Shown: positions 35,832-64,000 of the stretch, piece after piece
How the letters are laid out: each line of letters opens with the position of its first letter
Numbering within the stretch: the first letter of the stretch is position 1
NCBI GenBank assembly: GCA_009392215.1
Contig: VFGZ01000039.1
Span: forward strand, 9,633-73,632
Direction: 5' to 3'
Origin: SAR202 cluster bacterium
Lineage (GTDB): Bacteria; Chloroflexota; Dehalococcoidia; Lucifugimonadales; Lucifugimonadaceae
DNA length: 64,000 nt
Position numbers and translations under genes: made by a program
Notes under the pieces: generated by a model
Database searches by the model: none
The model's input: only the letters and a program-made list of their open reading frames with translations
Told to the model about the DNA's origin: nothing

Positions 35832-35867
35832 CAAACGTTTGCCTAGCAAGTTCACCTGCCAAATATC

Positions 35868-36953
35868 ATGTTAATACGAAACAAAGCTTTTTGGATCGGT
35901 GCTGTCGGCAGCGCTGTATTTCTTGCTGTTTTCGTTGTGCTATTTGTAGATTTGGGTACCATCGGCGAGATTCTGCGGGATGCCGATTATGCCTATGTCG
36001 CCCCTTCAATCTTGTTCTATTTTCTGGCTGTTTGGTTTAGAACCGCGAGGTGGAAGTTTTTACTTCGTCCTTTAATCGGTAAACCAAAAAAACGAATCTA
36101 CTCTGTGGTCATCGTCGGTTACATGGCCAACAATCTGATACCGATTCGTATTGGAGAAGTGATTCGATCTTATTACTTGAGCTTGCGAGAGGAATGCTCA
36201 ACTTCAGCGGCCTTTGGCACCGTCGCAGTTGAACGAGCCACGGATGTACTTGCTTTACTGCTCTTTCTGGGCGCAGCTGGACTGATGAGTACGTCAGGAG
36301 TTGAACGAGTATTTGGTGACATTTCTTCAAATGTACCGGGAGGAACCTGGATCATGGTTACAGCCGCGCTGCTGCCTTTCATCGTGGTGTTTAGCGTGGT
36401 CCTTTTAATCTCCATTTCAAGTAAACAAAAAGTTACTGACTTTTTTGCTCACGTTCTAATTGTCGTGGGGTACAAATACCGGAAACGTATGCTCGCTATC
36501 ATTGGCCGATTACTTGAAGGTCTAACGGTTGTAAACTCGGTTTCTGATCTTATAAAAGTTCTTGGTTGGTCATTACCGGTTTGGGCAGCGGAAGCAGCCA
36601 TGTACTATCTGATAGCGATGGGATTTGATTTAGGTTCTAACTTTACTACTGAACTAGAATTCCTGTCTGCGATATTGCTTTTTACTGCCGCGGCAAATCT
36701 AGCTGGAGTTTTTCCCTCCACTGCCGGAGGCTGGGGTCCGTTTGATTTTTTTGGAGCAGCATCCTTGATCGCGCTTGGCGTGCAAAATGAAATAGCAGCT
36801 GGATATGCTTTAACTGTGCATGTTGTTGTTTGGGTGCCTCCGACCCTACTTGGTGCACTGTTACTCATATTGGATGGCACTTCTCTTACTCGGCTGTTGC
36901 AAGGTGCAAAGACCTCAAGCCAACATTCCGTACATCAAGGCCCTGCCAAATGA
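35868..36953 (+). CDS. Lysylphosphatidylglycerol synthase TM-domain (UPF0104/flippase-like) protein
   Basis: RW..LL, GYMANNLIP.RIGE..R, ER..D, P...GG.G.F motifs; multi-TM. Confidence 0.85.
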   Translation: MLIRNKAFWIGAVGSAVFLAVFVVLFVDLGTIGEILRDADYAYVAPSILFYFLAVWFRTARWKFLLRPLIGKPKKRIYSVVIVGYMANNLIPIRIGEVIRSYYLSLREECSTSAAFGTVAVERATDVLALLLFLGAAGLMSTSGVERVFGDISSNVPGGTWIMVTAALLPFIVVFSVVLLISISSKQKVTDFFAHVLIVVGYKYRKRMLAIIGRLLEGLTVVNSVSDLIKVLGWSLPVWAAEAAMYYLIAMGFDLGSNFTTELEFLSAILLFTAAANLAGVFPSTAGGWGPFDFFGAASLIALGVQNEIAAGYALTVHVVVWVPPTLLGALLLILDGTSLTRLLQGAKTSSQHSVHQGPAK

Positions 36954-61132: not shown

Positions 61133-62305
61133 TCAGATTTGAGCAACTGTATTTTCATTAATGATATTCCAATCAATCTCAACGCCAAGCCCGGGTTTAG
61201 TCGGGGCTAACACATAACCTTCGTCATTGATTGCTAACGGATTCTTGATCCCAAAACTTGCTCCGTCTGGATAGGGCAGTTCGATATATCTACAATTTTT
61301 GATGGCTAGTGCGACATGTAAGTTCGCAACATCCATTAATGAAAGTACGGTCATATGGATTTCACAATTGACGCCGAAACCTTCAGCAATATGCGCAGAC
61401 TTTAATGTTCCAGTAATACCGCCAGTCCAGGAAACATCAGCGCGAATGATGTCAGCCGCACCAGATTTCAGGTAATTGATTTTTGAAAAAACATCTGAAT
61501 TCCATTCGCCCGCACAAATTGCAATGTCTAAAGTATGAGTAAGTTGTTCAAGACCATGAATGTCGTGATCATAGAGAGGTTCTTCAAGCCATAAATATTT
61601 CAATTTTTCCAATTCGCGTCCCACTTTTACGGCGTCCTGATGATCATAATTTCCGCCAACCGGGTCACTCATCAACACAAAACCGGGTCCGACGGCTGAT
61701 CTAACTGCCTCGCAGCAAGCAATGTCAAGATCGGGTTCGCCCGGCGGGTGAAGTTTGAAAGCCGTAAATCCGTCAAGTTTCGCTTGAATTGCCAATGAGG
61801 CATATTCCTCCGGTGTTTCCATAAATGGGGAACTAGCGTACGCAGGTATTCGATCGCGATAAGCTCCGATGTATTTATACAAGGGAAGATTCGCAGATTT
61901 GGATGCAATGTCCCATAAAGCTACATCAAGTGGGCCATATGAGTTGAATGATGCAAGGCCTCCGTAACGATCTGCCCGATGCGCCGCATGCCATAATCGT
62001 TCGCGATCAAGAGGGTCATTTCCAATCAATTCAGGGCGAAAAACTTCAGCAATAGTATGGGCCAATCGCATACCACCTTTTGTCCCCCAGCCAAAGCCGT
62101 ACCCTTCTAATTCTGAGTCTGTTTTCACCACAAGTACTACTATTTGGGGGGAGGTGCAATGAGGTGTCTCGGAGATTTCGGATCCAACAGATTGGTGCCG
62201 GATCGATGATTTCAAGGGTAAGGCACCTGGTTTCACTGGAGACTTATCCATCATCCCTGGCTCGGGTATATCCACGACAATGATTTCAACATCAGTGATT
62301 TTCAT
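61133..62305 (-). CDS. Mandelate racemase/muconate lactonizing enzyme family protein (distinct subfamily)
   Basis: DVALWD, FKLH, MSD, WLEEP, AGE, EIH, PGLG. Confidence 0.9.
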   Translation of the reverse strand: MKITDVEIIVVDIPEPGMMDKSPVKPGALPLKSSIRHQSVGSEISETPHCTSPQIVVLVVKTDSELEGYGFGWGTKGGMRLAHTIAEVFRPELIGNDPLDRERLWHAAHRADRYGGLASFNSYGPLDVALWDIASKSANLPLYKYIGAYRDRIPAYASSPFMETPEEYASLAIQAKLDGFTAFKLHPPGEPDLDIACCEAVRSAVGPGFVLMSDPVGGNYDHQDAVKVGRELEKLKYLWLEEPLYDHDIHGLEQLTHTLDIAICAGEWNSDVFSKINYLKSGAADIIRADVSWTGGITGTLKSAHIAEGFGVNCEIHMTVLSLMDVANLHVALAIKNCRYIELPYPDGASFGIKNPLAINDEGYVLAPTKPGLGVEIDWNIINENTVAQI

Positions 62306-62360
62306 TATTTTCTCGTTTATAAATTTCTATCATCAGCCGATTAACTCGCCAAGCATCGTG

Positions 62361-62384
62361 AAACTTAGTCGCTGGACTAAGTTT
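62361..62384. promoter_or_regulatory. Perfect inverted repeat upstream of the enolase-family gene (operator or hairpin)
   Basis: AAACTTAGTC-GCTG-GACTAAGTTT. Confidence 0.45.
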
Positions 62385-62508
62385 AGACCTCATCGATATT
62401 ACAGATGACAAAACACTTATAGCCTGAAAACTTTGCAAAACAACTAATATTTAGCCGGTGCCGCCTATTCCCGAAAAGTGATTCTGGAAGTTAACCAGAC
62501 AATAACAC

Positions 62509-62676
62509 GTTGTTTGATATGTGGTTTAAATGATTTGGCTCTGGCGGTGATAGAGGTCGTTATCAGGCACCAGAGCCAATATTGAGCGAGATTGTTTCGC
62601 TCTCGCCATATGGATCAGTTGGATAGTTGTCGCTTTGAATGATGGCGACACAACTGAACCACATAGTCAAGTTAAC
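62509..62676 (+). ncRNA. Candidate structured non-coding RNA (closing stem plus three hairpins), family unknown
   Basis: TATGTGGTT/AACCACATA closing helix encloses TTGGCTCTGG/CCAGAGCCAA, GAGCGAGA/TTTCGCTC and TCAGTTG..TGTCGCT/GGCGACA-CAACTGA; G-U pairs favour the + strand. Confidence 0.55.
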
Positions 62677-62759
62677 ACATGCCCATCAGCCAACAGGGGA
62701 GTGGGGTTTATTGAAATGCGTTATATTTATATATAGTCGTGATGTTTTATCAGCGTTGC

Positions 62760-63881
62760 CTATTGCCCAATGCACTCGACAAGACGATCAGCCACAACTT
62801 GCTCTTGACCTTTTGACAAATTGACCATGTTAGCTGCCAATCCTCCATCAATCCTCGCTATATAAATGCGGGGGTTTCCTTCATGAAGTTCTTGCCAAAC
62901 CCGATCGGCTTCAATTGAACCATTCTTGAACTTGATCACGCAGTTTGGGACATGAAACTGCAAGTAATCGTGTTCGACGGAAACGGTAACTTTCGTATTG
63001 TCTTTCAAGCGATCATTAATATGTTCGGCTTGGGCTTTCATCGTCGTCATCCGAACATCGTCGTCTGACTCTATAAACAGTTGCAATGCTGTGGCCATTC
63101 CAATTAATTCTTCTCGACCGACCTTGGCCGGCCGTCCAATTGCCATTTCTGGTCCACTATTCAATAATGCAGCTTCTACAAGGTCTCTCCGTCCCGCTAA
63201 AAGGCCTGCGGATTGTGGTCCGCCTATGTATTTACCACCGGAAAATGTGACTAGGTCGGCTCCGTCATCGATATATTGAGTTAGATTCGATTTGGGTGGA
63301 AGCATGGCTGCACCATCAACAATAACCGGCACACCATGGTCGTTAGCTATTTCAACGACCTGTTTAAGTGAAAGCCCATTTCTTGGTGGTCCATAAGCGA
63401 ATGTGTAAAGAATTCCAGCCGTTTTTTCTGTTATTGACTTGGCAAATTGACTTGCCGACGCCCCATTTTCATCTCCAGAAAGTTTGATTTCAGCACCAGC
63501 GTACTCGTGACATTTCATGTAGCCCGCAGGATTATTGTGCTGTGTAAGGATTTCATTCTTCAACCCAGTTGTATTTGGAAGTTGTGCAATCTTTTTTGAA
63601 TCCGTTCCTGTCATAACCGCAGCGGTTGCCAGTAGAAGCCCGCCGGCCGCTCCTGAGCAAATGAGTCCGCTTTCTGCTCCTGTCACTTCGGCGACAAAAT
63701 TTCCGGTTGCTCGTTTTAATTCGACAAGGTTGACATAAGACTCCGATGCCAGGCTCATTGCCTCTCGAACCTCCGCGCTCATCATAGAACCACCGTGTGT
63801 GGTGTGGGTTCCCCCAGCATTTATTAATGGCGTTACACCAAATCTCGCATATACCGGGTTATTAAGCGGGTCGCTAGACAT
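62760..63881 (-). CDS. SelA-like PLP-dependent enzyme (DgaE/D-glucosaminate-6-phosphate ammonia-lyase-like), not true SelA
   Basis: INAGGT.T..GGS, G.D..KI.QLP, VDGAA, FSGGK.IGGPQSAG...GR, IGRP.KVG.EE. Confidence 0.85.
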   Translation of the reverse strand: MSSDPLNNPVYARFGVTPLINAGGTHTTHGGSMMSAEVREAMSLASESYVNLVELKRATGNFVAEVTGAESGLICSGAAGGLLLATAAVMTGTDSKKIAQLPNTTGLKNEILTQHNNPAGYMKCHEYAGAEIKLSGDENGASASQFAKSITEKTAGILYTFAYGPPRNGLSLKQVVEIANDHGVPVIVDGAAMLPPKSNLTQYIDDGADLVTFSGGKYIGGPQSAGLLAGRRDLVEAALLNSGPEMAIGRPAKVGREELIGMATALQLFIESDDDVRMTTMKAQAEHINDRLKDNTKVTVSVEHDYLQFHVPNCVIKFKNGSIEADRVWQELHEGNPRIYIARIDGGLAANMVNLSKGQEQVVADRLVECIGQ

Positions 63882-64000
63882 TGTTCGCATCCTTTACCCA
63901 TTCAGGAGGGTTTTAGAGACTAATTTTCATCAGATAAGCAATCTATATTAAGGCAACTTATGATAGAAATACGCATCGACGAAATAAAACTCAATTTCAT

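Follow-up and report, generated by a model that had tools for sequence, protein, structure and literature searches.

A real, conserved, non-coding structured motif, new in having no match in Rfam, lies in the 454-nt gap at positions 62306-62759 of the 64,000-nucleotide stretch of DNA analysed here (hereafter the window), between the genes for a SelA-family PLP enzyme and an MR_MLE-type member of the enolase superfamily. An RNA from it would very probably be made from the minus strand, judging by the way in which substitutions fall within its helices, and among the genomes and metagenomes searched the element is restricted to a small sub-clade of one marine Chloroflexota genus. It is tentatively regarded here as an RNA that acts in cis on the MR_MLE gene, either as its leader or from between the two cistrons, and that is confined to this lineage; the conserved core hairpin, P2, would then serve as a terminator-type or factor-binding hairpin.

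Genomic setting and homologues of the element

The window belongs to a marine Chloroflexota MAG of 1.8 Mb and 85% completeness. Both genes flanking the gap are on the minus strand, with the SelA-like gene upstream of the element and the MR_MLE gene downstream of it (Table 1). The SelA-like protein resembles D-glucosaminate-6-phosphate ammonia-lyase (DgaE; PDB 8t7j, 1.4e-38, and 7lc0, 8.1e-34). The closest solved structures for the MR_MLE protein are 1rvk and 4hcd, followed by the L-talarate/galactarate dehydratases; this places the gene among the acid-sugar-type members of the superfamily, apart from enolase itself, and the label "enolase gene", used in an earlier note made on this DNA from the sequence alone, gives way to that of an MR_MLE-type member, by Pfam as well as by the nearest structures. 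The MR_MLE paralogues of the enolase superfamily are strongly expanded in this 1.8-Mb genome (five matches at E<=1e-40) and number 2-8 per genome in 28 congeners.

The gap is the fourth-largest stretch of the window without an ORF of at least 90 aa. The earlier note had described it as the largest unexplained one; two of the larger stretches are accounted for, one by the SRP RNA and the other by a TGA-interrupted selenoprotein gene. The 773 nt at 35832-36604 also lack an ORF of at least 90 aa and exceed the gap in length. At the window end (from about 64038; L085:371-1210), only the start of an uncharacterised 280-aa plus-strand ORF is seen. A second SelA-family paralogue, about 33% identical, lies divergent from the SelA-like gene (L043:6343-8651); in L043 it is followed by an amidohydrolase and, farther along, by an aldo-keto reductase, a sulfatase and another amidohydrolase. 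The genes around this second paralogue appear to form an island for the catabolism of a modified sugar or amino-sugar acid.

Homologues were sought with a covariance model (R1; 196 positions, 38 pairs) in 151 genomes of the family and with BLAST over 152. The two methods together place the element in three other genomes (G003, G009 and G142) among 28 of the same genus, and in none of about 123 genomes from 18 other genera of the family. Scanned with the 20-mer at the apex of P2, metagenomes gave seven true homologues along with four chance matches (L040, L047, L048 and L050), and a pattern scan of genome contigs gave three records from uncultured Chloroflexi/Chloroflexota MAGs, one of which (L088) is 98% identical to the window. 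The sequences form five lineages, namely the window with L088; L009 with L042; L039 with L041, L045 and L049; L010 with L043 and L046; and L044 by itself. The sequences from the pattern scans match the P2 loop by construction, which does not hold for G003, G009 and G142; there the apical 20-mer is nevertheless identical or one base off.

The order of SelA-like gene, element and MR_MLE gene is kept in G003 and G142. In G009 the SelA-like flank is kept and the contig ends just past the element, which leaves the MR_MLE side outside it. In the MR_MLE orthologues at 62-75% identity, from other species of the genus and from other genera, the SelA-like neighbour and the element are both absent, and R1 run with its filters off found no match upstream of 13 such orthologues at 67-75% identity. 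The element is found only at the SelA-like/MR_MLE junction and is absent from the 62-75% orthologues, and is therefore a young, lineage-restricted feature of that junction, the alignment leaving out the upstream DNA of 32 MR_MLE orthologue clusters at 83-87% identity. One 70%-identical orthologue, from another species of the genus, has an upstream gap of about 725 nt with neither the element nor a SelA-like neighbour (L060:2665-3389, G020).

Table 1. Positions in the window of the flanking genes and of the parts of the element
Feature	Position	Strand	Remarks
SelA-family PLP enzyme, 376 aa	62760-63890	-	Upstream gene; Pfam SelA 1.3e-14
AT-rich near-palindromic box CTATATATAAATATA	62722-62736	-	Starts 24 nt past the SelA-like stop codon
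Conserved box CUGAUGGGCAUGUGUUAAC	62671-62689	-	5' of P4; consensus CUGNUGGGYAUAUGUUAAAU; unique in the genome
P4, long irregular hairpin	62606-62666	-	Window pairs 62651-62656/62616-62621 and 62645-62650/62628-62633
P3, 6-bp hairpin GAGCGA/UCGCUC, loop AACAAUC	62584-62602	-	Sequence conserved
P2, conserved core	62535-62579	-	Outer stem of 12 bp (up to 16 bp elsewhere); inner 5-bp stem UGAUA/UAUCA
Tract after P2	62526-62534	-	AUCAUUUAA in the window; UUUCAUUUAA or UUUUAUUUAA in other lineages
P1 5' arm (plus sense)	62518-62526		Partner 62657-62665; 9/9 complementary in the window
Small hairpin UCUGG/CCAGA followed by AUCACUUUUC	62483-62499	-	Flagged as terminator-like by the consensus scan
Spacer to the MR_MLE start codon	62306-62482	-	Poorly conserved, identity 0.39-0.62
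MR_MLE/enolase-superfamily enzyme, 390 aa	61133-62305	-	Downstream gene; Pfam MR_MLE_C 1.6e-51 and MR_MLE_N

Architecture, conservation and probable strand of the element

The helices described in the earlier note are all present in the window. P1 is formed by the two arms given in Table 1, P2 by 62535-62544/62570-62579 (10/10 complementary) with the inner TGATA/TATCA, P3 by 62584-62591/62595-62602 and P4 by 62615-62621/62651-62657 with the inner TGTCGC/GCGACA. On the plus strand the minimum free energy of the 211-nt stretch is -73.6 kcal/mol (z -3.82, with none of 200 shuffles as good), and the fold is a four-helix junction closed by P1. The minus strand reaches -72.3 kcal/mol (z -6.77, again below every shuffle), and the fold consists of three tandem hairpins, the long P4, P3 and P2, with no junction closed by P1. 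The minus strand thus folds about equally well in absolute energy and much better relative to its composition. For a background, 82 other 211-nt segment-strands from the window were folded with the same script as the element; their z-scores have a mean of -0.24, a standard deviation of 1.15 and a minimum of -3.56, and the element in that script gives -4.5 (plus) and -6.9 (minus). The z-score of the element is below that of every one of the 82 background segments, and the fold is therefore beyond chance; the folding check which the earlier note had proposed is borne out on both strands, against shuffles and controls alike.

The individual helices differ in how well they hold across the lineages. 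For the outer stem of P2, every lineage has 11.8-15.8 expected paired bases on minus and 9.7-14.9 on plus. P3 is weakened in two lineages, one of which has an A-C and the other a U-C mismatch, with 0.1-0.9 expected base pairs on the minus strand. A P4 hairpin is present in each lineage in a varying register (GGUUG:CAAUC plus GUUGUU:AACAAC), and the minus-strand fold of the window extends it by pairing CUAUGUGG (62659-62666) with CCAUAUGG (62606-62613). Closure by P1 is predicted for the plus strand of the window and for the L010/L043 lineage only and is weak or absent elsewhere; in the remaining lineages GGUUG of the P1 5' arm pairs with the invariant CAAUC to form the base of P4. The multi-branch structure closed by P1, as originally proposed, is thus the best plus-strand fold of the window, but it reaches no further than one other lineage. 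A mutually exclusive, switch-like pairing of TCGCCAT with ATGGCGA had also been suggested; it is present in the sequence, but lies in a 5-nt insertion unique to the lineage of the window.

Pairwise identity in a sliding comparison of six sequences is about 0.80-0.90 in coding DNA and 0.39-0.65 in the spacer. An island of 0.85-0.88, on par with the flanking coding sequences, falls exactly over P3 and P2 (62540-62599), and conservation drops to 0.39-0.6 right after the U-rich tract; in three lineages it reaches about 45 nt beyond the tail. P4 has an identity of just 0.56-0.63, and the P4/P1 region is conserved no better than background. Within the sequences compared, conservation at the level of coding DNA is limited to P2, its loop and the U-rich tract, and less firmly includes P3.

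P2 has a small pyrimidine internal loop between its two stems and a near-invariant apical loop of 8 nt, ACGACCUC (62553-62560). The columns of the tract that follows are nearly invariant. Of the 8 nt after the stem, 6-7 are U in four lineages and 4 are U in the window's own sequence, and three lineages have a matching A-tract ahead of the stem (GAAA...UUUC). P2 is situated 180-225 nt past the SelA-like stop codon. On the 5' side of the hairpins, the box CUGAUGGGCAUGUGUUAAC falls outside every conserved helix and its predicted partner changes from lineage to lineage. The AT-rich box CTATATATAAATATA is kept in all lineages with a mean pairwise identity of 0.74 and is unique in the genome; it is a candidate promoter (-10 region) or operator, and a scan with the sigma-70 consensus, to which it has no match, did not call it.

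On the 3' side, other lineages have a different small hairpin (CUGC/GCAG or CUAC/GUAG) near 62483-62499, with no U-run after it. The distance from P2 to the ATG of the MR_MLE gene is 258-261 nt in all five lineages despite a spacer identity of 0.39-0.62, and this spacing appears, from the aligned sequences, to be constrained. The spacer of the window also contains a perfect 10-bp hairpin at 62361-62384 (AAACTTAGTC/GACTAAGTTT, with a 4-nt loop), which is not obviously conserved in the other lineages. In L010, L043 and L046, some 73-90 nt beyond the P2 loop (L010:1631-1650, for instance), the sequence AGAGGUC is the exact complement of GACCUCU in the loop and is placed as a Shine-Dalgarno (SD) sequence 7 nt before the ATG of a Lys-rich mini-ORF (MKKKKRY...); in the sister lineage L044 this SD is lost and the mini-ORF is cut to three codons.

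Covariation was examined on nine distinct sequences from the five lineages. In the alignment, 93.5% of the cells are paired and two pairs show double changes; the pair 119:161 is U:A, U:G or C:G across the lineages, and the pair 129:151 is G:C, G:U or U:G. The covariation score of 0.138, compared with 0.125 in shuffles, is reached by 78 of 500 shuffles; the sequences are too similar to one another, and too small in number, for it to be statistically significant. The homologue search suggested by the earlier note thus did yield homologues in five lineages, but not a significant covariation. With only two double-change pairs and a score matched by shuffles, the structure is therefore not yet backed by compensatory-change statistics; it is backed by thermodynamics, by conservation and by an asymmetry of G:U pairs between the strands.

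For the strand of origin, the 38 pairs were scored in both orientations on the alignment of the five lineages. The P2/P3 cells comprise 208 Watson-Crick, 20 G:U and 15 mismatched cells on the minus strand (standard pairs in 228/243), and 208 Watson-Crick, 3 G:U and 32 mismatched cells on the plus strand (211/243). Eleven strand-informative helix positions show, in at least one lineage, a pair that is G:U on minus but A-C on plus, and two show the reverse (binomial p ~0.01), in a test where the helices were partly chosen on the minus strand (the middle of P2 and the base of P4) and the lineages are few. With P2 and P3 as the earlier note had defined them on the plus strand, the count is 6 to 1 for minus. 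Substitutions that are G:U on minus and A-C on plus point to an RNA sense to both neighbours. The plus-strand preference of the earlier note is thereby left unsupported. The G-U wobbles on which it was founded do exist on the plus strand; all of them, however, are at loop-closing ends of helices, where the minus strand merely has larger loops, and they stand in invariant columns and so carry no comparative information. A minus-strand leader of the enolase-family gene, which had been given as the second option, becomes the favoured reading.

Explanations considered for the element

Rfam 15 (4227 models), searched with cmscan at E<=10 over 61500-64000, gave three chance-level matches, none of them over the helices, and no match was found within the element at four homologous loci, in agreement with the earlier note, which could not match it to tRNA, tmRNA, RNase P, 6S or common riboswitches; a whole-window scan at the gathering thresholds recovered the SRP RNA and tRNA-Sec as a positive control. 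BLAST, short-word BLAST, tblastx and the covariance model found no copies of the element elsewhere in the genome, and plasmid and phage collections gave no match to it. A gene remnant or paralogue (best whole-genome tblastx E 0.098), a repeat or mobile element such as a REP, MITE, integron attC or IS end (single copy, no plasmid or phage match) and membership of a regulon (neither the AT box nor the 5' box nor the P2 loop recurs in the genome) were rejected. A small protein gene was rejected as well. A 1-nt indel shifts the open frames across P2 from one lineage to another, and their length varies too; the spacer has no conserved ORF; and a single frame is open and has a start codon in all the sequences, in which one codon, through the covarying columns 151-152, would encode R, Y, P, D or G. 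Among the papers listed in a literature search, none links SAR202 with an RNA motif.

The reading tentatively preferred here is that of a cis-acting leader or intercistronic RNA. The minus-strand RNA would lie within a transcription unit running from the DgaE-like PLP gene through the element to the MR_MLE-family gene. The selected core is the two-tier hairpin P2 with the loop ACGACCUC and the adjoining P3, preceded by the variable P4 and the conserved 5' box, and the element would control the MR_MLE gene in cis, from a leader or an intercistronic position. Most likely, P2 and the U-tract would work as a terminator-type hairpin, and a factor recognising the P2 loop may set read-through, or else mRNA processing or stability. 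This reading draws on the terminator-like layout, on the synteny and on the fixed distance from P2 to the ATG. Masking of the MR_MLE ribosome-binding site by the P2 loop (CCUCU) was rejected, the duplex being no better than those of shuffled loops (fraction at or below the observed value 0.26-0.57). An antiterminator was rejected too, as the predicted folds of truncated transcripts contain no conserved alternative partner for the arms of P2.

Some features count against this reading, among them the two negative results just given, the non-significant covariation and the partial choice of helices on the minus strand for the strand test. With about 260 nt between it and the start codon, P2 is remote for an expression platform. 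The AT box does not match the sigma-70 consensus. The window tail, with just 4 U in 8 nt, counts against a terminator role of P2, and so does its top of 23 nt, which is untypical of intrinsic terminators. The consensus terminator scan did not call P2, since the loop region far exceeds the 3-8 nt of the consensus.

A sense-strand sRNA acting in trans, rather unlikely but the main rival, shares the minus-strand evidence with the leader. Such an RNA would be about 190 nt long, from about 62712 to 62525, and would end at P2 and the U-tract as its own terminator; its 5' end would be set either by transcription starting at the AT-rich box or by processing of the SelA-like 3' UTR. Its layout would be a typical bacterial one, with a 5' box outside the conserved helices, hairpins, and a terminal hairpin with a U-tract, and its conservation is bounded, rising at the AT box, peaking over P3-P2 and falling to 0.39-0.6 after the tail, with about 260 nt of poorly conserved DNA between P2 and the next start codon. 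The consensus scan, however, called neither a promoter nor a terminator for it, conservation in three lineages runs about 45 nt beyond the tail, and the occurrence of the element only where the SelA-like/MR_MLE junction exists suggests a local role.

It is unlikely that P2 is a plain 3' end, that is, a constitutive terminator or protective hairpin of the SelA-like gene with P3 and P4 incidental. The G-C-rich stem with a U-rich tract after it, and in three lineages an A-tract before it, would suit such a role, as would the want of a conserved alternative pairing and the weak covariation. The loops of terminators are not normally invariant, however, and the 18-nt top of P2 is conserved like coding sequence; the hairpin, moreover, stands 180-225 nt past the stop codon, and the conserved 5' box and the AT box would be left unaccounted for.

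Still less probable is a new class of riboswitch or protein-dependent attenuator in deep-ocean Chloroflexota, sensing an intermediate of an amino-sugar-acid or sugar-acid route made up of the DgaE-like ammonia-lyase and an acid-sugar dehydratase, with recognition by the P2 loop and P3 and termination at P2 and the U-tract. The location agrees with such a class, being apparently on the sense strand, 5' of the MR_MLE gene and in conserved synteny. No riboswitch-type expression platform was found: there is no conserved mutually exclusive pairing and no sequestration of the SD beyond that of shuffles.

A plus-strand RNA antisense to both neighbours, with the junction closed by P1 and an end at CCCA...UGGG and UUUAUU, is very unlikely. 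The plus-strand minimum free energy fold is exactly that junction (z -3.8 to -4.5), three loop-closing G-U pairs occur on plus only, and the GUUUAU after the weak hairpin is conserved. These wobbles are, as said, uninformative; the strand-informative positions stand at 11 to 2 and the mismatched cells at 32/243 to 15/243 in favour of minus, and P1 is not conserved. The CCCA...TGGG hairpin, which the earlier note had seen as following the structure together with TTTATT, is conserved in neither sequence nor shape, although the GUUUAU after it is.

A DNA-level site (an operator or recombination site built from the nested inverted repeats and the AT palindrome) or a decayed mobile element or gene remnant is highly improbable, since against the perfect inverted repeats (10 bp, inner 5 bp), the near-palindromic AT box, the near-invariant apical sequence and the catabolic genes, of a kind often under repressors, stand the strand-asymmetric G:U pattern, not expected of double-stranded DNA sites, arms 25 nt apart with an inner hairpin, untypical of operators, a single copy with a best genome tblastx E of 0.098 and no plasmid or phage match, and the fact that no regulator or recombinase gene was seen adjoining the element.

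Significance and comparison with known RNA systems

At present the element is an orphan motif of narrow range, of use as a candidate to be catalogued rather than as a discovery. If real and regulatory, it would join a very small number of RNA control elements so far described from uncultured marine Chloroflexota, and as a leader responsive to a ligand or a protein it could hint at the substrate of the DgaE-like/MR_MLE pair.

Three kinds of known systems bear comparison with the element. P2 is like the intrinsic (Rho-independent) terminators and attenuators in its G-C-rich stem, in the 6-7 U within 8 nt in four of the five lineages and in the upstream A-tract of three, and is unlike them in its 23-nt top with a second 5-bp helix and a near-invariant 8-nt loop, and in the window tail of 4 U. 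The bacterial sRNAs, unlike the element, are not tied to one gene junction, and the element has no recognised chaperone-binding module; it is like the 3'-UTR-derived and stand-alone sRNAs in its length of about 190 nt, its conserved 5' box outside the helices and its terminal hairpin with a U-tract, and like the 3'-UTR-derived ones in standing directly behind a coding gene on the same strand.

The third kind comprises the orphan leader and riboswitch-candidate motifs of the Breaker/Weinberg type, which were obtained by comparative genomics and are held in Rfam (overviews in PMC7266159 and PMC8632094). Unlike these, the element matches 0/4227 Rfam models at E<=10 and is found in five close lineages only, its covariation is not significant, it has no conserved terminator/antiterminator alternative and it lies about 260 nt from the start codon. 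Like them, it has several hairpins, lies in a long intergenic region ahead of a catabolic gene and shares that gene's strand, and it combines an island of coding-level conservation without an ORF with a hairpin followed by a U-tract.
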